Shown piece by piece: positions 37,738-60,141 of a stretch of DNA of 64,000 nt; within the stretch, counting starts at the first letter, position 1, and each line of letters begins with the position of its first letter. Location of the stretch: assembly GCF_053078305.1 (NCBI RefSeq), contig NZ_CP166879.1; one strand, given 5' to 3'. The notes beneath the pieces are model-generated. The model was not told the origin of the DNA. It did no database searches and was given only the letters and a program-made list of their open reading frames with translations. The translations under genes and the position numbers were made by a program.

Positions 37738-40782
<3,045 letters not shown>

Positions 40783-40786
40783 GTGA

Positions 40787-41437
40787 TTAGTCTTTATCTG
40801 CCGGACTTAAGGTCACAGAAGAGAGATAATTCAGCAGGGCGATATCGTTCTCGACACCCAGCTTCATCATCGCAGATTTCTTCTGGCTACTGATGGTTTT
40901 AATACTGCGGTTCAGCTTTTTAGCGATCTCGGTCACCAGGAAGCCTTCCGCAAACAGGCGCAGAACTTCACTCTCTTTTGGCGAGAGACGCTTGTCACCG
41001 TAACCACCAGCACTGATTTTTTCCAACAGGCGAGAAACGCTTTCCGGGGTAAATTTCTTCCCTTTCTGCAGCGCGGCGAGAGCTTTCGGCAGATCGGTCG
41101 GTGCACCTTGTTTCAGCACGATCCCTTCGATATCCAGATCCAATACCGCACTAAGAATCGCCGGGTTGTTGTTCATGGTCAGAACAATGATCGACAGGCT
41201 TGGGAAATGGCGCTTGATGTACTTGATTAAGGTAATGCCATCGCCGTACTTATCGCCAGGCATGGAGAGATCGGTAATCAACACATGCGCATCCAGTTTC
41301 GGCAGGTTGTTGATCAGTGCTGTAGAGTCTTCAAATTCGCCGACAACATTCACCCACTCAATTTGCTCAAGTGATTTGCGAATACCGAACAAGACTATCG
41401 GATGGTCATCGGCAATAATTACGTTCATATTGTTCAT
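40787..41437 (-). CDS. rcsB: Rcs phosphorelay response regulator (LuxR/FixJ-type HTH)
   Basis: 216 aa, MNNMNVIIADDHPIVLFGIRKSL. Recognised as RcsB. Confidence 0.96.
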   Translation of the reverse strand: MNNMNVIIADDHPIVLFGIRKSLEQIEWVNVVGEFEDSTALINNLPKLDAHVLITDLSMPGDKYGDGITLIKYIKRHFPSLSIIVLTMNNNPAILSAVLDLDIEGIVLKQGAPTDLPKALAALQKGKKFTPESVSRLLEKISAGGYGDKRLSPKESEVLRLFAEGFLVTEIAKKLNRSIKTISSQKKSAMMKLGVENDIALLNYLSSVTLSPADKD

Positions 41438-41481
41438 GTACTTGCACCTATGTATTAACTATTTGATTTTAAAAATATATT

Positions 41482-42771
41482 CTATGCTTTGTTTAGTCGT
41501 TGGGGCACCTGTGGGACATAAGTACATAGCTTTCTGTTTAGTACTTCTACCTGGGACTGGTTATTGTCTTTCATCCATGCACCGTAAACATTGTAAACCA
41601 TCTGGGCATTCGCATGTCCCATCTGGTTGGCTATGAAGTTTGGATTTGCTCCGGCAGTTAAAGCCCAGCAAGCATAAGTATGCCGAGACTGATACGCTTT
41701 TCTATGGCGAATTTTTGCTCGTTTTAATGCAGATTCCCATGTTCTGTTGATGGATGTTACGGCATAATGAACTCCTGAGTTACCTGTGCGATCTAATATC
41801 TGAGGATTGAAAACAAAGCTGCATGAGTGAGTGCTTGTCCGGCCATACTCTCGCAGCTTTACTTCTATCTGATATTGTTTACCAAGCCTGGTTAATGTCG
41901 CCTGATTTTTTAATACGTCAATTGCTGGCTGTATGAGTTGTATTACCCTGTTTGTTCCTGCATCTGTTTTGGGTAGTGTAAATTCCTTTGTCTGAGTGTA
42001 ATTCCTTTTGACGGTCAAGGTACCCGCTTCCAGATCGATATCCTCCCATGCTAGCCCACACAGTTCGCCATGCCGCATCCCGGTATATACAGCCAGCGAC
42101 CAGAAATTTTTAGTTTGCTGGTGGTGGCACGCATCAATCAGTCTGGCAAACTCATCTTTTGTTAGTGGATCGGGAGGTGTTTTCGCTCTTTTCAGTGATG
42201 GAAGCTCACTGAAAGGGTTTTTGCCTATATACCCATTGTTTGCCGCAAAACGGAACATCCCGGAGATAATTGTCATATAGCTATTTACAGTAGGTACACT
42301 ACGACCTTTAATAGGCTTCCTCTGATTTTTTCCTGGCAACTGATATCCCGTTAATAATTCTTTACGAAAAATGAGAACATCTTCCTGTGTAATTGATGAT
42401 GCCAGTTTGTTCCCTCCAAGGCAGTCAAGGCAATTTCGGATAGCTGATTTGTATCTGACCATGGCATTTGCTGTTATTTCCATTTTCTTAAGCTCAAGCC
42501 ATTTTTCCGAAAGTGCCTTAATGGTTATCTCTTTTTTTCCCAGACCAAAATGTTTCAGGTTAGGGGAATTAGGGAACTGCGCGGCGTAGTCGAAGCTCCC
42601 CATTCTTATTGCAAAACAAACGGAAGTGCGAAGTTCACCTGCGATCTTCCGGTTTTTGGCGGTGTCAGGAACACCGAGGTTTTCTCTGACACGTTTGCCG
42701 TTATAGTGAAACCATATGCGGAGTGATCCTCCATGGTTTTCAACGCCTGTCGGGTATGATGCGTTACTCAT
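41482..42771 (-). CDS. int: Phage integrase (tyrosine recombinase)
   Basis: 429 aa. The C-terminal catalytic region has SRHTYACWAL...GHANAQMVYNVYGAW (R, HxxR, Y). Terminal position in the prophage. Confidence 0.9.
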   Translation of the reverse strand: MSNASYPTGVENHGGSLRIWFHYNGKRVRENLGVPDTAKNRKIAGELRTSVCFAIRMGSFDYAAQFPNSPNLKHFGLGKKEITIKALSEKWLELKKMEITANAMVRYKSAIRNCLDCLGGNKLASSITQEDVLIFRKELLTGYQLPGKNQRKPIKGRSVPTVNSYMTIISGMFRFAANNGYIGKNPFSELPSLKRAKTPPDPLTKDEFARLIDACHHQQTKNFWSLAVYTGMRHGELCGLAWEDIDLEAGTLTVKRNYTQTKEFTLPKTDAGTNRVIQLIQPAIDVLKNQATLTRLGKQYQIEVKLREYGRTSTHSCSFVFNPQILDRTGNSGVHYAVTSINRTWESALKRAKIRHRKAYQSRHTYACWALTAGANPNFIANQMGHANAQMVYNVYGAWMKDNNQSQVEVLNRKLCTYVPQVPQRLNKA

Positions 42772-42804
42772 TAAACCTCCCAGACGTCCAGGAGCATTAA
42801 CAGG

Positions 42805-43059
42805 TTAACCGGAACTTGCATTTTTGGCACCTGGTTGTTTCTGGTTTTCGATCCAGCGCATAATTTCCTCAATGTTGTATACACATTCACTGAAAGGCCC
42901 GGGCTCTCCTTCTGCTGCGTAATGACGGTATTCTTTCCCCAGTAACCAGGATTTTTTTCTTGCTCTGGCAATGGTTCCTGATTTCAGTCCAGTTGCAGCA
43001 ATAAGGGTTCTTTCTGTGCACCATTTGCTGGGCGTTATCTGATAGATGATTGTTTCCAT
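42805..43059 (-). CDS. xis: Excisionase-like DNA-binding protein
   Basis: 84 aa, immediately upstream of int on the same strand. Small, basic and winged-helix-like (TGLKSGTIARARKKSWLLGKEY). Confidence 0.6.
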   Translation of the reverse strand: METIIYQITPSKWCTERTLIAATGLKSGTIARARKKSWLLGKEYRHYAAEGEPGPFSECVYNIEEIMRWIENQKQPGAKNASSG

Positions 43060-43066
43060 TCCTGAC

Positions 43067-43213
43067 TCACACTATCTTCAGGCCACGGCAGTGGCACCAC
43101 ACGTCAAACATTCGCTTTACAACTTCACGGCAGTAGAAGCCGTGAGCATCTCTGGTTAAATCGTATCGGTACCCGTATCTGAGTCGTATCCATATTTCAA
43201 ACTCGCGATTCAC
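43067..43213 (-). CDS. Small hypothetical protein (48 aa, below the ORF-track cutoff)
   Basis: My own translation. A GTG start preceded by GGAGAATAA gives VNREFEIWIRLRYGYRYDLTRDAHGFYCREVVKRMFDVWCHCRGLKIV. It fills the gap in a tightly packed operon. Confidence 0.35.
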   Translation of the reverse strand: MNREFEIWIRLRYGYRYDLTRDAHGFYCREVVKRMFDVWCHCRGLKIV

Positions 43214-43233
43214 GACTTATTCTCCTGCTGTCT

Positions 43234-43476
43234 TTATGCCAGTTCATCCGGTTGCGCTGGGGCCCAGGCCTTCCGTGGCCTGTATTTGCGGCGTTTTCTG
43301 GCTTCAATGCGTATCTTTGTCACCCTGACTGGCTTTGGTTCGTGCCGGAACACTTTGTTTCTGATATTACGCCGTGTATTCATCATCCAGATAAAACGCT
43401 GGGTATGGTCGCATCCGTCATCAACGGTAATTACTGTGCGGACCAGTTCATCGTTAATATCAACCATTTCACCCAT
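43234..43476 (-). CDS. Hypothetical early-left protein with a basic C-terminus
   Basis: 80-aa ORF whose start overlaps the stop of the upstream gene by 8 nt (operon packing). Confidence 0.45.
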   Translation of the reverse strand: MGEMVDINDELVRTVITVDDGCDHTQRFIWMMNTRRNIRNKVFRHEPKPVRVTKIRIEARKRRKYRPRKAWAPAQPDELA

Positions 43477-44371
43477 TCACTGAGCCCTCATACGCGAATT
43501 TCGTGGCTTCCATCAGTTGCGTCCATACCCATTCAAGAAATTGTGCGTTTTCTCCTGAGCGGTCATATTCATCGACGCTGCGGGGCTTGATGGTCGCCAG
43601 TAGTGGCACAATCCGGTACTTCATCTGTTCGGTTAACTTGTCCGGTACAAGTCGCCAGCCGTTATATTTCGATGGAACATGGTGGTATTCAGCCAGGAAG
43701 CGTCGTATATCGTTTTTCATTTCCTCGCATGAGTTCTGATCATGAAGTGCAGCGGAAAGCCAGCGTCCGATATATTCAGGGATTCGCACATCAAGTACTT
43801 TTTCTGCCGTCGTCAGCATTGCCTGTCGGCAGGCGTTCCAGCCGTTGACATAGTGACGTGTTGCATCCCATGAAACCTGCACATCAGGGTAAGCATCCTG
43901 TTCTGTTCTCACTGGCGGTATCTGAGGAACAGTGAATAGTGGACTGACGATATATTTATCCAGAGAGCCTCCCCGCTCTTCTGCAAGATTTTCCCACGAT
44001 GTCATTGTGGGGACCCTGTAACCTGCTTTTTTGTGCGTATACATCCATGCTACTCTGCCGTTATCATCTGCGGCGGCAATGCGCTGCCAGGCAGGATAAA
44101 GCGGGGTGTATGTTTCTCTGTCATTACGGGCGTCAGGCATGGCATCAATACTGCAAACTTCCCCCGTAAGGTTATTCAGCCAGGCCTTCGGGCTAATCTC
44201 TGACGTTACGATTTCATCCAGTTTTTTCTCCAGATTTTCTATGTGACTGATTAGCGCAAGGATAACTGGCGGAGTGGCAAGGGAGTGAAATGCTTCCAGA
44301 TCACATCCCTTGTCTCCATATACGGTATTTTGTGCGGCGTCACGCAGTGCTTTCAGATCAGCTTCTTTCAT
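43469..44371 (-). CDS. Ead/Ea22-like family protein
   Basis: 300 aa. The N-terminus MKEADLKALRDAAQ...PPVILALISHIENLEKKLDE resembles the Ead/Ea22 N-terminal module of lambdoid b-region genes. Confidence 0.5.
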   Translation of the reverse strand: MKEADLKALRDAAQNTVYGDKGCDLEAFHSLATPPVILALISHIENLEKKLDEIVTSEISPKAWLNNLTGEVCSIDAMPDARNDRETYTPLYPAWQRIAAADDNGRVAWMYTHKKAGYRVPTMTSWENLAEERGGSLDKYIVSPLFTVPQIPPVRTEQDAYPDVQVSWDATRHYVNGWNACRQAMLTTAEKVLDVRIPEYIGRWLSAALHDQNSCEEMKNDIRRFLAEYHHVPSKYNGWRLVPDKLTEQMKYRIVPLLATIKPRSVDEYDRSGENAQFLEWVWTQLMEATKFAYEGSVNG

Positions 44372-44592
44372 CGTTCAGACTCCCTTGTTGCTGTTTTGTA
44401 GGCGCGCAGGATGTCGCGTGTTTTTCCTGATAATGACGACTTAACCAGGAAAAAGCCGCTCCGGCTTTCTGTGATGTCCGGCGTGCACAGAAGTACCGCA
44501 TCAACGACACGATTATGTTTTCGCAATGTCAGGCGGGAACTGGTGATAATCAGTTTTGCCTGTTCGCCGTAATCGGTGAATGAAATAATCAT
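44368..44592 (-). CDS. Hypothetical small protein (74 aa)
   Basis: This is the 3' part of ORF 44368..44802. I prefer ATG 44592 (MIISFTDYGEQAKL) because it is preceded by GGAG and starts 16 nt after the upstream stop. The longer ORF overlaps the better-supported 44609..44971 gene. Confidence 0.5.
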   Translation of the reverse strand: MIISFTDYGEQAKLIITSSRLTLRKHNRVVDAVLLCTPDITESRSGFFLVKSSLSGKTRDILRAYKTATRESER

Positions 44593-44608
44593 CTGATGGC
44601 GATCTCCG

Positions 44609-44971
44609 TTATGAAAGTGTTCCTGCTGGTTCAATGCTGATAATTTCTGCTGCAATAAGCATACCTGCCAGCCATGCTTCGCCGAGCATGTCCTCATCCG
44701 TACATGCAAGATCACCGATCTGTATTGTGGCCATAATGTTAGTTTCACCGGTATATTCATCCTGTGCTTCTTCATACGGCAGCTCTTCATAAAGGTTTTC
44801 AATTGCGCAGGTTATTACATCCAGTCCCGTCAGATTGCCGACAACGTCCACTTCAAATGTTTCGCGGTACTCCCATTGCCCGAGTGTCAGACGAACCGTC
44901 TGTCTTGCCATGCGCCTGCATAATGTCATGTTCGGGTCGTAGTTCATGATTGCCGCAGTAGTGCTATTCAT
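44609..44971 (-). CDS. Hypothetical acidic protein
   Basis: ORF 44609..45016. I prefer Met at 44971 (MNSTTAAIMNYDPN), overlapping the upstream stop by 8 nt. Confidence 0.55.
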   Translation of the reverse strand: MNSTTAAIMNYDPNMTLCRRMARQTVRLTLGQWEYRETFEVDVVGNLTGLDVITCAIENLYEELPYEEAQDEYTGETNIMATIQIGDLACTDEDMLGEAWLAGMLIAAEIISIEPAGTLS

Positions 44972-54241: not shown

Positions 54242-54319
54242 AGCCGGAGATATCCAGTAGACATTTTCCCCCTGAGCATTCAAATCAGAAAAAGTATGGT
54301 TACAGCGGAGTACAGAATA

Positions 54320-54745
54320 ATGCGTGATATCCAACAGGTTCTGTCCCGATGGGGTGCATGGGTGGTAAATAATCATGAGAGTGTGGCATGGTCCGGCGTC
54401 GCTGCCGGATTTAAGGGAGTGATCCCATCAAAGGTTAAATCACGGCCTCAGTGTACCGATGATGATGCGCTGATTATCAGCAATTGCATGGCGCAACTGA
54501 ACGTCAACAACAGCGATTTGCATGATTTTCTGTATGATTATTATGTGTTCGGGATGACGCTTATGGGACTGGGCCGTAAGCATGAGCGCTCTGATTGCTG
54601 GGCCGGGCGGGTACTGCAAAAAGCTGAAGGTGTTATTGAGGGGATGTTGATTATGCAGGGAATAAAACTGGAAATGGACAGATACGTTGAGCGTGAACGA
54701 TCAGGGGCACAGGTCAGTCAGTTTTCCGGACATACGGGAAATTGA
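54320..54745 (+). CDS. Q: Late-gene antiterminator Q (933W-type family)
   Basis: ORF 54296..54745. I prefer Met at 54320 ([20 protein letters not shown]...[12 protein letters not shown]...[12 protein letters not shown]), which closely matches my recollection of Stx-phage Q. GGAG lies 9 nt upstream. Confidence 0.8.
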
Positions 54746-54769
54746 AAGCGCGGGGTTTTACTGTAGAAT
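54742..54769 (+). promoter_or_regulatory. Strong sigma70-type promoter overlapping the Q stop codon (hok-mRNA promoter and/or PR' equivalent)
   Basis: TTGAAA (54742-54747), a 16-nt spacer, then TAGAAT (54764-54769). The predicted start near 54775-54777 coincides with the 5' end of the hok-type mRNA fold. Confidence 0.6.
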
Positions 54770-54774
54770 GACTG

Positions 54775-55164
54775 CGGGTGCTTGAGGGGGTCTGCCTCGG
54801 GCATGCTGCCGTAAGGCAGACGGAGAAAAGCCCCAGTTAACATTACGTGTCCTGCAAGACGCTTAACATTAATCTGAGGCCCAATCTATGTCACACAACC
54901 GTAGGTTAGCCTCTTACGTGCCGGAAGGCAAGGAGAAGCAGTCTATGAAGCAGCAAAAGGCGATGTTAATTCGCCCTGATCGTCATCTGTTTAACCGTCA
55001 TAGTGACGGCACTGGTAACGAGGAAAGACCTCTGCGAGGTACGGATCCGAACCGGCCAGACGGAGGTCGCTGTCTTCGTAGACTACGAATCTGAGAAGTA
55101 AGAGACCAGGCGGGGGAGTAATCTCCCGCCACCTCTGATGTGTCAGGCATCCTCAACGCACCCG
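54775..55164 (+). other. hok/mok/sok-type type I toxin-antitoxin transcription unit (full-length mRNA architecture)
   Basis: The 5' CGGGTGCTTGAGG (54775-54787) is complementary to the 3' CCTCAACGCACCCG (55151-55164), as in tac/fbi fold-back pairing. The mok-like leader starts at ATG 54888. Leader sequences resemble plasmid R1 hok (GCTTGAGG..TCTGCCTC..., CTATGTC...AGCCTCTTAC...GCAAGGAGAAG). A 3' hairpin lies at about 55109-55130. Confidence 0.7.
54945..55101 (+). pseudogene. hok: hok/gef-family toxin gene disrupted by a +1 frameshift (extra T at 54970/54971)
   Basis: As written, the ATG at 54945 gives MKQQKAMLIRPDRHLFNRHSDG... Deleting one T restores MKQQKAMLIALIVICLTVIVTALVTRKDLCEVRIRTGQTEVAVFVDYESEK, a canonical Hok/Gef sequence, with stop at 55099-55101. 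Confidence 0.7.
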
Positions 55165-55275
55165 TACTTTATTTGTCATATGCTCCGCAAAATGCAGGTT
55201 GTCGTTGCAACCCGTGCGGTAATTTTTTGTGTGCGAGTGCTCAAAAAACGTTGATTTTCATAAAAGGATAATTTT

Positions 55276-58176
55276 ATGCTGCCAGACCAGCGACCAGCGA
55301 CCAGCGACCAGCGACCAGCGACCAGCGACCAGCGACCAGCGACCAGCGACCAGCGACCAGCGACCAGCGACCAGCGACCAGCGACCAGCGACCAGCGACC
55401 AGCGACCAGCGACCAGCGACCAGCGACCAGCGACCAGCGACCAGCGACCAGCGACCAGCGACCAGCGACCAGCGACCAGCGACCAGCGACCAGCGACCAG
55501 CGACCAGCGACCAGCGACCAGCGACCAGCGACCAGCGACCAGCGACCAGCGACCAGCGACCAGCGACCAGCGACCAGCGACCAGCGACCAGCGACCAGCG
55601 ACCAGCGACCAGCGACCAGCGACCAGCGACCAGCGACCAGCGACCAGCGACCAGCGACCAGCGACCAGCGACCAGCGACCAGCGACCAGCGACCAGCGAC
55701 CAGCGACCAGCGACCAGCGACCAGCGACCAGCGACCAGCGACCAGCGACCAGCGACCAGCGACCAGCGACCAGCGACCAGCGACCAGCGACCAGCGACCA
55801 GCGACCAGCGACCAGCGACCAGCGACCAGCGACCAGCGACCAGCGACCAGCGACCAGCGACCAGCGACCAGCGACCAGCGACCAGCGACCAGCGACCAGC
55901 GACCAGCGACCAGCGACCAGCGACCAGCGACCAGCGACCAGCGACCAGCGACCAGCGACCAGCGACCAGCGACCAGCGACCAGCGACCAGCGACCAGCGA
56001 CCAGCGACCAGCGACCAGCGACCAGCGACCAGCGACCAGCGACCAGCGACCAGCGACCAGCGACCAGCGACCAGCGACCAGCGACCAGCGACCAGCGACC
56101 AGCGACCAGCGACCAGCGACCAGCGACCGTAAATCAAGAAAGTCTGTAAAATCTGTTGAACCAGACATTGCCGACCGGGCTAACAGCTGGCTCAAATCTT
56201 ATGGACTTGATTACAAACTGGAGCAGGCACCACTTAACAACGAGATCGATAACGCACTGGATGCTTATTTTTCGAAAAATGGCGGCGCAGGCGGTAATCG
56301 TCCCGACGTAAAACTCCTTGTTCAGGACAAATACGGCAAGCAGTATCCCGTTCTCATCGAGTATAAAGGCTACAAGGACAGGCTTATCAGACTTGGCAGC
56401 AACGGTATTATTGAGAACAAAGATGCCAGAAAAGAATGGAATTTTAAAAATATTAATGGATACGCGGTGAATGGCGCAGTCCATTATGCCAACGCACTTC
56501 TTCAGTTCACCAATTACCCTGATATTATTGCTATTGGTATGACCGGCTGGCGCGATGATGATACAGGCGAACTGCATCATGAAATCGGCGTGTGGTACGT
56601 ATCAAAGAATAATTTAGGAGCCGGGCAGAAGGTTGGTGAATTCACCGACTTATCATTCCTTGCTGACAAAAATGTTGATGGATTTCTCAACAAGATAAAG
56701 CTGCTTAATCTTCCTCCCGAAGAACTGGAAAAAATCAAGGCCAGCAAAGAGGAAGAGATAGACACGCGACTTTCCCGTCTGAATAACGATATTTACCAGA
56801 ATGAAAAGGGGCTTGGTGAAAGCGATCGTGTTTACCTTGTTGTGGCTACCGTTATTGCAACGTTGGGGATTCCGGGAAAGTTAGCACCGCTGGATAAAAA
56901 AGAACTGACCTCTTCAACGGAGGAGGACTTGCGTGATGGTGATATTATTTTCAGGAAAATAAGGAATTTTTTAAGGCTGAAAGCTGTTCCTGAAACAAAA
57001 AGAGAAATGATTTTGCGCTCGTTGCAAAATACGCTGTGGACTGAAAACATTAACAAACCAGTCAACGGTGAAAGCCAGTTAAAGCGCGTGTTTGTTAAAG
57101 TTGTTGATGATCTTGGGGAGTATTACAAAATCGGACTGACCACCGATTTTACGGGCAAACTGTTTAATGAGATGTATCGCTGGCTTGGATTTACGCAGGA
57201 CAAACTCAATGACGTCGTTCTGACACCACCTTATGTTGCCACATTGCTGGCACGACTCGCCAGAGTAAACAAAGATTCCTATGTGTGGGATTTTGCTACA
57301 GGTTCTGCGGGATTGCTTGTGGCTGCAATGAATGAAATGCTCATTGACGCCAGAGAAAATATTCACTCACCGAATGAACTACAACTTAAGGAAGCGCAAA
57401 TCAAGGCTGAACAGCTTCTTGGCCTTGAGGTGTTATCCAGTATTTATATGCTGGCCATCCTGAATATGATTTTGATGGGGGATGGTAGCTCGAATATCCT
57501 CAATAAAGACTCGCTAGCCGATTTTGACGGCAAGTATGGATTTGGGAAAACAGGAGAAAAATTCCCTGCGGACGCATTTATTCTCAATCCTCCGTATTCA
57601 GCTAAAGGTAACGGCATGATTTTCGTGCAGAAGGCGCTGTCGATGATGGATAAAGGCTATGCTGCAGTGATTATCCAGAGTTCAGCCGGCACAGGAAAGG
57701 CTACGGAGTACAACAAAAAAATACTCAAGGAAAATACCTTGCTGGCAAGCATCAAAATGCCTGCGGATCTGTTTATTGGTAAATCAAGCGTTCAGACGTA
57801 CATTTACGTTTTTCAGGTAAAAATTCCGCATAACGCGAAACAGGCTGTTAAGTTTATCGACTTTTCCAATGACGGCTATGCTCGCTCTAATCGCAAAAAG
57901 GCAAGAAACAATCTTGTTGATGCCGATCGTGCAAAAGAGCGTTATCAGGAGGTTGTGGATCTGGTTCACTTCGGGAAAGGTTGCCTTAATATCTTTACGG
58001 AGGATGAATATTTTGAGGGAACAATCGATCCTGATAGTGGTGAGGACTGGAATCAGACTAGGCCAGTAGATACCAGACCGACACTGGAGGATTTTAAAAA
58101 GACGGTTGGCGACTATCTTGCGTGGGAGGTGTCAAAACTTCTTCAGGGGCGTGATGCGTCAGAAAAAAAGCAGTAA
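55276..58176 (+). CDS. Restriction-modification polypeptide: 40 x PATSDQR repeat leader + PD-ExK (HSDR_N-like) nuclease + gamma-class N6-adenine methyltransferase (BcgI-A-like, Type IIB/IIG layout)
   Basis: ATG 55276 follows AAAAGGA. After the repeat come NRPDVKLLV...YPVLIEYKG (PD...ExK), then YVWDFATGSAGLL (SAM motif I) and FILNPPYS (motif IV). No SF2 translocase domain is present. It is followed by an HsdS-like gene. Confidence 0.75.
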   Translation: MLPDQRPATSDQRPATSDQRPATSDQRPATSDQRPATSDQRPATSDQRPATSDQRPATSDQRPATSDQRPATSDQRPATSDQRPATSDQRPATSDQRPATSDQRPATSDQRPATSDQRPATSDQRPATSDQRPATSDQRPATSDQRPATSDQRPATSDQRPATSDQRPATSDQRPATSDQRPATSDQRPATSDQRPATSDQRPATSDQRPATSDQRPATSDQRPATSDQRPATSDQRPATSDQRPATSDQRPATSDQRPATSDQRPATSDQRPATSDQRPATSDRKSRKSVKSVEPDIADRANSWLKSYGLDYKLEQAPLNNEIDNALDAYFSKNGGAGGNRPDVKLLVQDKYGKQYPVLIEYKGYKDRLIRLGSNGIIENKDARKEWNFKNINGYAVNGAVHYANALLQFTNYPDIIAIGMTGWRDDDTGELHHEIGVWYVSKNNLGAGQKVGEFTDLSFLADKNVDGFLNKIKLLNLPPEELEKIKASKEEEIDTRLSRLNNDIYQNEKGLGESDRVYLVVATVIATLGIPGKLAPLDKKELTSSTEEDLRDGDIIFRKIRNFLRLKAVPETKREMILRSLQNTLWTENINKPVNGESQLKRVFVKVVDDLGEYYKIGLTTDFTGKLFNEMYRWLGFTQDKLNDVVLTPPYVATLLARLARVNKDSYVWDFATGSAGLLVAAMNEMLIDARENIHSPNELQLKEAQIKAEQLLGLEVLSSIYMLAILNMILMGDGSSNILNKDSLADFDGKYGFGKTGEKFPADAFILNPPYSAKGNGMIFVQKALSMMDKGYAAVIIQSSAGTGKATEYNKKILKENTLLASIKMPADLFIGKSSVQTYIYVFQVKIPHNAKQAVKFIDFSNDGYARSNRKKARNNLVDADRAKERYQEVVDLVHFGKGCLNIFTEDEYFEGTIDPDSGEDWNQTRPVDTRPTLEDFKKTVGDYLAWEVSKLLQGRDASEKKQ
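55285..56128 (+). repeat. Perfect heptanucleotide tandem repeat (GACCAGC) x 120 plus a partial GACC
   Basis: I checked the phase at the start of every 60-nt line and it is consistent. The six-frame translations are perfectly periodic (PATSDQR / WSLVAGR). I saw no variant unit. Confidence 0.97.
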
Positions 58177-58211
58177 ACTCCCGTCTTGCAGAGCTTGAGC
58201 GGGAGTTTATT
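58164..58211 (+). promoter_or_regulatory. Candidate -1 programmed ribosomal frameshift (or A7 slippage) cassette at the A/S junction
   Basis: A_AAA_AAG lies at 58164-58170 in the correct zero frame (GAA AAA AAG). Then comes a stem, with core ACTCCCG (58177-58183) / CGGGAGT (58200-58206), extendable to about 12 bp over 58172-58211. The -1 frame is the S-subunit frame. Confidence 0.45.
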
Positions 58212-58250
58212 AAATCTGGTGGTAAATGGGAAGAATACACAATCGAAAGA

Positions 58251-59360
58251 TTGTTCAGTATTCAGACACCTAAAAAGAAATTTAATGCCAATAAATTAAC
58301 ATTTAATGGCAACTATCCTTATGTTGCCAGAGGAAGTAACAATAACGGCATAAAAGGATATATAGATGAAGATGAATTATATCTCAACCCGGGGAATACA
58401 ATTAGCTTTGGTCAGGATACTGCGACTATGTTCTATCAGGAAAACGCATATTTCACAGGTGATAAAATAAAGATTTTTTCTCTCAGGCATGGAGAGTTAA
58501 ATTCGCGAATTGCTTTTTTTCTTATATCAGCAATGAAAAAATCTTTTTCAACGTTTAGTTGGGGGAGTAGCTCTTTTAATGAGAATGTTCTCAATAAGGT
58601 AAAGATAAATATACCTACGTTTAATAATGTTCCTGCATATAATTATATGGTAAAGTATATAGAAGAGCTGGAAGCGGCCCATATAGAAGAGCTGGAAGCG
58701 GCCCATATAGAAGAGCTGGAAGCATACCTGATAGCTGCTGGGCTGAGTGATTACCAACTAACGGAAAAAGATTATCTTATCCTGGAACATTTTAAAAATA
58801 TTGAATTTTCAGGCTTTCCTGTTACTGAGTTATTCTCAGTGTGCAATACAGGAAACATATTGTCTAGAGACATCATAGAAAATAGTGGGGATGTTCCTTA
58901 TCTTTGTGCTAGCCGTGAGAATAACTCTGTTAGTTCTTATATCGCCTATGATAACTCACTCTTGGAAAAAGGGAACTGTATTTTTATTGGTGGTAAGACA
59001 TTCGTTGTAACTTATCAGGAGCGAGACTTTTTTTCAAACGACAGTCATAATTTGCGACTCTATGTTAACAATGAGGATGGAAGGACAAAGTTTGCTTATT
59101 TGGGCATTATTTCATGTATTTATAGATCTATTTCACATAAATATTCATGGGGGGATAGTGTTAGTAATAGAAAAATTAAGAACGATGTTGTTTGGTTGCC
59201 AGTAAAAAATAAGTCACCTGACTTTTGTTATATAAATGACCTTATTTCAGTTGTTCATAAGCTTGTCATTAAAGATGTTGTCCAGTACGCAGAACGCAAA
59301 ATGAACGCATACAGGCAAGCTATAACAAGTCGCGGTTATGATGATTCTGGTGTCAGTTAA
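58251..59360 (+). CDS. Specificity (S) subunit with two target-recognition domains (HsdS / BcgI-B-like)
   Basis: 369 aa from TTG 58251. The same frame is open back to 58155 with no ATG/GTG/TTG, and it encodes S-like sequence (RLAELEREFIKSGGKWEEYTIERLF). Two TRD-like halves are separated by a helical IEELEAAH repeat. Low GC. Confidence 0.7.
   Translation: MFSIQTPKKKFNANKLTFNGNYPYVARGSNNNGIKGYIDEDELYLNPGNTISFGQDTATMFYQENAYFTGDKIKIFSLRHGELNSRIAFFLISAMKKSFSTFSWGSSSFNENVLNKVKINIPTFNNVPAYNYMVKYIEELEAAHIEELEAAHIEELEAYLIAAGLSDYQLTEKDYLILEHFKNIEFSGFPVTELFSVCNTGNILSRDIIENSGDVPYLCASRENNSVSSYIAYDNSLLEKGNCIFIGGKTFVVTYQERDFFSNDSHNLRLYVNNEDGRTKFAYLGIISCIYRSISHKYSWGDSVSNRKIKNDVVWLPVKNKSPDFCYINDLISVVHKLVIKDVVQYAERKMNAYRQAITSRGYDDSGVS
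58659..58723 (+). repeat. 24-bp tandem repeat (2 full units plus 17 nt) encoding IEELEAAH in the central helix of the S subunit
   Basis: atagaagagctggaagcggcccat at 58659-58682 and 58683-58706, then atagaagagctggaagc at 58707-58723. Confidence 0.9.
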
Positions 59361-59425
59361 AAAACATTTTACAATCGTAAAAATCCTCATATCATGATAA
59401 GAATGGTTACATTGCCACGCTGCTT

Positions 59426-59450
59426 AACCCGCCGATGCGCGGGTTTTTTG
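59426..59450 (+). terminator. Intrinsic terminator downstream of the S gene
   Basis: ACCCGC / GCGGGT stem followed by T6. Confidence 0.7.
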
Positions 59451-59630
59451 TATCCGGAATCCTGTTAGTTATACGGAAAGTACACAGAAAGGAAGGTGCG
59501 ACCGCAATTAATAACAAAATCTTAAAAATCGCATATGGCACTATTAGTTTTCTAAATATTGTATATTTTGAGTATTGTAGGATATCCCCTGTAACGAAGT
59601 TTGCGTAACAGCATTTTGCTCTACGAGTTT

Positions 59631-59660
59631 GCCAGCCTCCCCCAGTGGCTGGCTTTTTTT
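59631..59660 (+). terminator. Strong intrinsic terminator
   Basis: GCCAGCC / GGCTGGC stem with a 9-nt loop, followed by T7. It is followed by GTATCC, like the previous terminator. Confidence 0.75.
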
Positions 59661-59899
59661 GTATCCGTTCAACAGGAATGTTACATACCTCACAATTAAG
59701 TCAGTTGAAGGTTGTCTGCCCGGATGAGAATTTGTTAGAAAATTTCTGCATGGTGAATCCCCCTGAGCGGCGGGGCATATCAGCGTCACAGGTGTTTCTG
59801 TTTTACCTCTATCCTTTCTGTGCGGGTTCAGGTGCTGATACTGAACTCACCGGGAGGCACCCGGCACCATGCAGTATACAGAGATTAGGCATATACCAG

Positions 59900-59924
59900 G
59901 GCCCCTCATAGCAGGGGCCTTTTT
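59900..59924 (+). terminator. Intrinsic terminator upstream of nanS-p
   Basis: GGCCCCT / AGGGGCC stem with a 6-nt loop, followed by T5. Confidence 0.7.
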
Positions 59925-60141
59925 ACATGCAAAAAAAAGCCGCCCCGGGAAGAGCGGTTGGCAAGAAGAAAAGCAATATGAACAATTAATTAACGCTGCG
60001 AATAATACCTTACAGTAATCACCCTGCGCAACTGTGAGGAGTGTATTTCTTTTTTGCGGGTGGTTGTCTTTTTCCCTTGTGTTTCGGGACTTCCGTTCAC
60101 TCCTTATCTTATTCAGTACATTATCCCGGCCGGGAGGATTC

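Follow-up and report, generated by a model that had tools for sequence, protein, structure and literature searches.

The locus considered here, a lambdoid prophage lying directly upstream of rcsB, which encodes a response regulator, in a 64,000-nucleotide stretch of contig NZ_CP166879.1 (assembly GCF_053078305.1; this whole stretch is hereafter the window), can be set beside several described systems. One is the lambda paradigm of Int, Xis and integration host factor (IHF). Phage 21 and e14, which occupy icd, and the phages that target tRNA genes carry a replacement for the gene end. Shiga toxin (Stx) phages in yehV/mlrA or wrbA are insertions that disrupt coding sequence, and the escape synthesis of gal and bio is due to pL read-through from an induced lambda prophage.

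As in lambda, we find an arm-binding tyrosine integrase, an adjacent excisionase, an int gene beside an att arm and a short identical core, together with core-type repeats in inverted orientation, candidate arm-type repeats in both arms and, in the P' arm, an IHF consensus. In mechanism this is ordinary lambda-type integration, and every sequence-level feature that could be tested agrees with it. What is unusual is the target, as the core covers the codon with which a global regulator begins, within a two-gene operon, the 5' control region is replaced, and the P' arm doubles as the 5' untranslated region of rcsB. As with the icd and tRNA gene phages, the att core overlaps a conserved gene, the phage arm restores it and the target gene is intact; however, in those cases the 3' end is replaced and the promoter is untouched, whereas at rcsB the 5' side is exchanged (the Shine-Dalgarno sequence and everything upstream of it) and the coding sequence survives. 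As in escape synthesis, the host gene is directly downstream of int on the same strand, and antiterminated leftward transcription should enter it, although rcsB, only 44 nt from int, is left with no native promoter, and read-through may thus be a main input rather than a side effect. The resemblance to the yehV/mlrA and wrbA insertions is that a Stx-type prophage occupies a locus controlling surface and stress phenotypes, but the rcsB prophage falls between the two genes of the operon, which is split with neither of them disrupted.

We propose, with a probability of roughly 60% for the proposal as a whole, that this arrangement is best explained by integration across a core that spans the rcsB start, with the P' arm supplying a new Shine-Dalgarno sequence and with rcsB transcribed from the phage side. 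The features on which the first part of this proposal depends are as follows.

40787 to 41437, minus strand: rcsB, 216 aa, with Response_reg and GerE domains; open reading frame (ORF) intact, ATG at 41435-41437.
41430 to 41440: att core TTGTTCATGTA (TACATGAACAA in the rcsB sense), 11 bp, identical in attB and in the rcsB-side and rcsD-side junctions.
41441 to 64000: prophage DNA, lambdoid and Stx-phage-like, continuing past the end of the window.
41482 to 42771, minus strand: tyrosine integrase, 429 aa, with Arm-DNA-bind_2 (PF12167, E 5.8e-24) and Phage_integrase (PF00589, E 2e-20) domains; TAG stop codon at 41482-41484.
42805 to 43059, minus strand: excisionase (DUF1233; PF06806, E 2e-27), adjoining int and annotated xisR in lysogens.
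attB: left flank ...GTTCATA, core, right flank ATAGGC...
rcsB-side junction: left flank ...GTTCATA, core, right flank CTTGCACC...
rcsD-side junction: left flank ...AAGTACG, core, right flank ATAGGC...

A megablast of window positions 40700-43000 against 5426 complete E. coli genomes finds the junction between rcsB and int, written as the pattern AGGTRCAARTACATGAACAATATGAACG, in 13 of them. Positions 40700-41440 match the empty-site strains listed (M8, for example) at 100%; the match then stops at 41440 and the empty-site sequence runs into rcsD. When the empty site of M8 (L001) is aligned with the window the divergence begins exactly at 41441, and in M8 the rcsD stop codon is followed by 16 nt (CAAGGTAGCCTATTAC) and then by the rcsB ATG. 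This native arrangement is absent from the window, where the DNA upstream of the core is that of the phage. At the far end of the prophage rcsD is intact in 13 of 13 complete lysogens, all of which have both junctions, and the two genes are separated by approximately 24-63 kb. Strain 2013C-3033 has a prophage of about 63 kb next to which rcsD is full length, its 2673 nt being equal to those at the empty site; the rcsD-side junction of this prophage reads, in the window orientation, ...GCAACAAGTACG-TTGTTCATGTA-ATAGGCTACCTTG-CTA, the last triplet being the rcsD stop codon, and three further lysogens have an identical junction.

To define the core, the empty site and the window were compared with each other and with the right junctions found in these four lysogens, the right junction itself being outside the window and read from related complete genomes. 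In the rcsB sense the core is TAC-ATG-AAC-AA, and thus takes in the start codon of rcsB, the whole second codon and two bases of the third. Because the core contains the ATG, the crossover falls on the rcsB start codon; the N-terminus of RcsB (MNNMNV...) is kept after integration, and rcsD retains its stop codon and 13 of the 16 spacer nt. The comparison of these sites confirms, at the level of sequence, that a lambdoid prophage was inserted by site-specific recombination at the 11-bp core, splitting the rcsD-rcsB operon and leaving both genes undamaged. On the rcsD side an 8-codon ORF, MNNVLVAF* (ATG AAC AAC GTA CTT GTT GCA TTT TAA; L003 6871-6905, 2013C-3033), is left over 16 nt past the rcsD stop codon, behind the native Shine-Dalgarno sequence of rcsB. 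In STEC2018-553 (NZ_CP075665.1, approximately 172257-197100; L032, H105) no more than about 24 kb separates the two att junctions, and this prophage is apparently a truncated remnant.

A preliminary description of the window had placed the int stop codon 44 nt from the rcsB ATG (41438-41481), which is correct to the base, although the junction string quoted there contains, in addition to the 44 nt, the last base of that stop codon. Its statement that in K-12 rcsD ends a few nt before rcsB holds for the empty-site strain, and the uncoupling of rcsB from rcsD that it described is borne out by the intact rcsD at the far end of all 13 complete prophages. The comparison with empty-site genomes that it had called for was run, and the 44-nt sequence is absent upstream of rcsB in them. 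A reconstituted rcsD 3' end in attP, which it had also entertained, can be discarded: the crossover is downstream of the rcsD stop codon and only the 11-bp core is duplicated; beyond the core the phage arm lacks similarity to rcsD, which is full length at the other end.

As only a single junction is visible in the window, and as lambdoid prophages in E. coli strains that produce Shiga toxin (STEC) recombine with one another, the junction could in principle have arisen through chimeric assembly or through some secondary rearrangement, for instance inter-prophage recombination that by chance brought an integrase beside rcsB, rather than through site-specific integration. This explanation is effectively refuted, and we consider it extremely improbable: the junction is shared by 13 complete genomes that were assembled independently and belong to at least four serotypes, all of them having the corresponding rcsD junction and the 11-bp direct repeat; five IMG/VR prophage records have it too, and diverged integrases are found at the same position in other genera. 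The lysogen serotypes include O146:H21, O75:H5 and O128ab:H2 (PMC13534694), and because there are several of them the lysogens do not represent one clone.

The use of this site in other genera is seen with five diverged integrases (82, 81, 80, 78 and 75% identical to that of the window), all encoded immediately upstream of rcsB. Those aligned are from Trabulsiella guamensis (80%), a metagenomic enterobacterium (81%), Cedecea (78%) and Salmonella Reading (75%). The spacer between int and rcsB is 44 nt in the metagenomic relative P0002, in Cedecea and in Salmonella Reading, with a convergent rcsC beyond rcsB in all three, and in Trabulsiella rcsB begins approximately 47 nt after int; in each of these four hosts an intact rcsB of 216 aa adjoins the integrase gene. 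The junction of a fifth relative, P0003, was read at a contig end where only the first 24 nt of rcsB are present. The start of rcsB is a dedicated attachment site across genera.

A sixth relative, P0006 (78%; L027 3501-5598, JGI metagenome 3300027312), is situated 299 nt upstream of sulA, not at rcsB. The layout of its P' arm is the same, with an IHF consensus after the stop codon, but its core is different and it has no AGG, and a switch of specificity within the same integrase clade is likely. Among integrases of GenBank phage records the nearest to the window protein are the yecE-type intR products of Stx1a, Stx2a and Stx2d phages, with 71-73% amino acid identity over the full length; the window type itself is in no GenBank phage record, the best identity being 73%. 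An exact copy of the window integrase is encoded on contig DBLSYJ010000016.1 of NCBI assembly GCA_054811765.1. The attB of these phages (Stx2_12E129_yecE and phage YYZ-2008 among them) is, by the record names, yecE, whereas here it is the rcsB start, and the window integrase is not a member of the yecE-type group. The DNA similarity to the yecE-type Stx phages (about 89%) is limited to xis and the first 100 or so codons of int (window 42475-43100), and we infer a mosaic integrase in which the arm-binding part and Xis were kept and the core specificity changed.

The segment between int and rcsB, together with the adjoining 3' end of int, has the following features.

41438 to 41445: candidate core-type integrase site C', GTACTTGC in the window and GTACTTGT in most lysogens.
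41445 to 41449, minus strand: phage-supplied Shine-Dalgarno sequence AGGTG, 7 nt before the rcsB ATG, replacing the native AAGGTAG.
41456 to 41468, minus strand: IHF consensus AATCAAATAGTTA (consensus WATCAANNNNTTR), an exact match, H'-like, at -31 to -19 from the rcsB ATG.
41501 to 41519: candidate pair of arm-type Int sites TGGGGCACCTGTGGGACAT, within the 3' end of int, recurring as TGGGGCATGTATGGGACAT in the P arm.

To judge from these elements, the 44-nt spacer is the P' arm of attP. In the reconstructed attP the sequence GTACTTGT repeats, in inverted orientation, the ACAAGTAC of the P side, so that the two flank the core, the window having C for the last T, and this repeat is probably an Int-binding site. 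Of five hosts scanned, four (E. coli, Cedecea, Trabulsiella and the P0002 metagenome) have an exact IHF consensus at -31, that of Salmonella having one mismatch, and the sulA-type relative also carries an IHF consensus. The 19-bp motif is present in both the P and P' arms, and the matching alignment columns are near-invariant across genera; the recurrence of TGGGGCACCTGTGGGACAT as TGGGGCATGTATGGGACAT suggests paired arm-type sites. The AT-richness of the junction would then be due to an H'-like IHF region of an att arm rather than to a promoter.

The same arm gives rcsB its new translation start. Most E. coli lysogens have AGGTA in place of AGGTG, and this G/A difference is the sole variation among 16 E. 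coli junctions compared. AGGT is invariant in six aligned junctions, which represent the window integrase type and four of the five diverged rcsB relatives, as is AGGTRCAARTAC-ATG, and the junction of the fifth relative likewise has AGGT. AGGT is invariant although it is no part of the inverted repeat, and the sulA-type arm does not have it; its retention suggests selection for keeping rcsB translatable. The new leader is predicted to be almost unstructured, with a fold of -6.1 kcal/mol per 90 nt as compared with -18 for its native counterpart. Of 11 complete lysogens examined, 10 have an RcsB annotated as one and the same intact protein (WP_001061917.1).

The transcription of rcsB from its new position is less straightforward. 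In Salmonella, rcsB has two promoters, one upstream of rcsD and one inside it (PMC3572086), the latter in agreement with the additional promoter inside rcsD that the preliminary description had mentioned. The positions corresponding to both are now beyond the prophage, tens of kb from rcsB. On the phage side we see one candidate promoter.

41466 to 41495, minus strand: sigma-70-like site TAAACA-18 nt-TAAAAT, matching at 9 of 12 positions and spanning the int stop codon.

This is the only sigma-70-like site on either strand within 41300-43400. We do not claim a conserved junction promoter across genera, as the -10-like TAAAAT is all that recurs, and this hexamer overlaps the IHF site. A scan for terminators on the rcsB strand, from the repressor region to rcsB, returned one site, a 5-bp stem inside int (42719-42733), which is weak and is taken as chance. 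A terminator of the tI/sib type, across the core in the P arm (the DNA that comes after int in the free phage), was also considered and set aside, since neither the scan nor folding gave a convincing terminator in the int sense; the only terminator-like hairpin of the P arm is on the opposite strand and is weak.

In the model that we favour, core-spanning integration followed by expression from the phage side, rcsB would remain translatable and would be transcribed from phage DNA. During lysogeny a basal level of transcription would come from the weak sigma-70-like site at the junction, from residual int transcription, or from both. Upon induction of the prophage rcsB would be strongly transcribed, because leftward early transcripts would meet no convincing terminator as they run through xis and int into rcsB, by analogy with the classical precedent of pL read-through from an induced lambda prophage into gal. 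The gene would in effect become the last cistron of the phage leftward operon, with the stoichiometry of rcsD and rcsB and the autoregulation by RcsB uncoupled. The suggestion of the preliminary description that rcsB may be wired to the state of the prophage is plausible, and a reasonable inference.

A possible alternative, although on balance a less likely one, is that lysogeny silences rcsB, which would be left without effective promoters and be essentially off, so that the prophage acts as a reversible Rcs knock-down restored only by excision, with no RcsB-dependent capsule, acid resistance or repression of flhDC. Both known rcsB promoters are indeed cut off by the prophage (PMC3572086), and the junction promoter is weak, not conserved and overlapped by the IHF site; moreover, loss-of-function rcsB alleles are reported to be widespread in STEC (PMC10562709). 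However, an invariant AGGT at Shine-Dalgarno distance, with the distribution described above, is hard to explain without translation of rcsB, and an intact rcsB adjoins int in four other hosts, just as the protein is intact and identical in all but one of the 11 E. coli lysogens. One lysogen can be read both ways. In FHI_NMBU_10 (NZ_CP046539.1; L030 681-1891) an element of the IS3 family of insertion sequences splits rcsB about 115 nt into the gene, while int and the att junction are unchanged. The disruption may be counted in favour of silencing, although the interruption of a gene that was silent in any case would confer no selective advantage; it is compatible either with an RcsB that is expressed and sometimes counter-selected or with relaxed selection.

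The opposite alternative is that the insertion is neutral, a constitutive promoter in the int coding region or in the P' arm fully replacing the native ones and leaving rcsB expression unchanged. Lysogens are found in several lineages and among clinical isolates, and the new translation initiation region is open, with a good Shine-Dalgarno sequence, as might be expected if this were so. Against this, there is no sigma-70-like site in int other than that at the junction. The native regulatory inputs of rcsB include autoregulation by RcsB at the rcsDB promoter. The loss of cotranscription with rcsD necessarily alters the regulation that rcsB receives (PMC3572086), and we regard a neutral insertion as improbable.

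Several observations weigh against our proposal of transcription from the phage side after core-spanning integration. The far junction of the window's own prophage is not visible, and that it reads ...ACAAGTACG-TTGTTCATGTA-ATAGGCTACCTTGCTA, ending with the rcsD stop codon, is an expectation drawn from relatives. The attP is a reconstructed site, with no exact free-phage match in IMG/VR; a looser pattern returned five genuine lysogen junctions and eight unrelated chance matches. Sites of 9/12 quality are expected approximately four times per 2.1 kb in shuffled sequence, the -35 of the junction site is not conserved between genera while its -10, TAAAAT, is kept in Cedecea and Salmonella, and IHF or Int bound at attL, overlapping the -10, could occlude the promoter. 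No CII-type TTGC-N6-TTGC motif, of the kind expected for a lambda-like pI promoter, was found near xis and int, and the int promoters of lambda are silent in a stable lysogen. Lastly, as the disrupted rcsB of FHI_NMBU_10 shows, this background can tolerate the loss of RcsB.

A more ambitious version of the proposal, which we consider rather doubtful and put forward only tentatively, is that the P' arm evolved as a portable control region for rcsB, providing a ribosome binding site and putting rcsB last on the pL-xis-int transcript. The level of RcsB would then be set by the phage and not by RcsD/RcsB autoregulation, and would be low and modulated by IHF and Int in lysogeny and would rise in a burst upon SOS induction, switching capsule, motility, acid resistance and biofilm with the decision between lysis and lysogeny, in several enterobacterial genera and in Stx1c and Stx2b E. 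coli.

The remainder of the window comprises the host genes beyond rcsB and the body of the prophage.

37738 to 40587, plus strand: rcsC, a 949-aa ORF of the host chromosome, convergent with rcsB; rcsC is annotated at the equivalent position in L001 and L002.
43234 to 48730, minus strand: early-left prophage genes, all on the rcsB strand.
48816 to 49514, minus strand: CI-like repressor (LexA/S24 family), annotated as a LexA family protein in lysogens.
54320 to 54742: Q antiterminator of the window prophage.
55276 to 59360: hsdM/hsdS-like cassette, directly after Q.
60142 to 62025: nanS-p of the window prophage.

The convergent intergenic region between rcsC and rcsB (40600-40780) contains two copies of a palindrome resembling the repetitive extragenic palindromic (REP) sequences (GCCGGATAAGGCGTTTACGCCGCATCCGGCA), which is ordinary repeat DNA of E. 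coli. Beyond the repressor gene are the replication genes of the prophage, and by synteny with strain JNEC-KY171 the lysis genes probably begin at the window end. No tRNA genes are present in the part of the prophage scanned (41000-64000). Although Q and nanS-p are present, StxA and StxB have no match anywhere in the window, and the window prophage is not an Stx-converting phage.

Among the prophages that occupy the rcsB site in E. coli, that of 2013C-3033 (O146:H21) carries stx1c and that of 04-00955 (an O2:H6 strain) carries stx2b, whereas those of JNEC-KY171 and 2012EL-2448, like that of the window, have no stx. In 2013C-3033 (L002 40027-41254) and 04-00955 (L042 18029-19264) the stx1c and stx2b genes respectively are situated between Q and nanS-p; the interval compared in the window is 54296-62055, and no stx is found there. 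The 04-00955 prophage has in addition three tRNA genes in this interval, and the hsdM/hsdS-like cassette right behind Q is common to these two prophages and that of the window. At its rcsD-proximal end (L003 7437-11429 and 25419-26645) the 2013C-3033 prophage carries as cargo genes for an S6-family autotransporter peptidase, similar to the serine protease autotransporters of Enterobacteriaceae (SPATE-like), and for a YadA/Eib-like adhesin, the peptidase gene converging on rcsD.

In full-text literature searches, a scope that excludes supplementary tables and subscription journals, where the site may be listed, no paper turned up in which rcsD/rcsB is named as a site of prophage attachment. The integration site of the stx1c phage in 2013C-3033 has been listed as 'eco-mqo' by an automated tool (PMC12113909), and by its position this prophage is the one at rcsB. 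As Stx1c and Stx2b phages integrate here in STEC that are negative for the locus of enterocyte effacement (O146:H21 with stx1c, O2:H6 with stx2b), a precise attB improves the typing of Stx phages.

In the Rcs envelope-stress phosphorelay the regulator at the output is RcsB, which in partnership with other regulators also acts on colanic-acid capsule, motility, curli and biofilm, and glutamate-dependent acid resistance. A phage lineage that integrates at the rcsB start parts RcsB from the gene of its phosphodonor and from its native promoters, and thus provides a natural system for the rewiring of a global regulator that is itself unmutated. If rcsB does follow the state of the prophage, then the induction of toxin phages would be mechanistically linked to the envelope and acid-stress physiology of their hosts.

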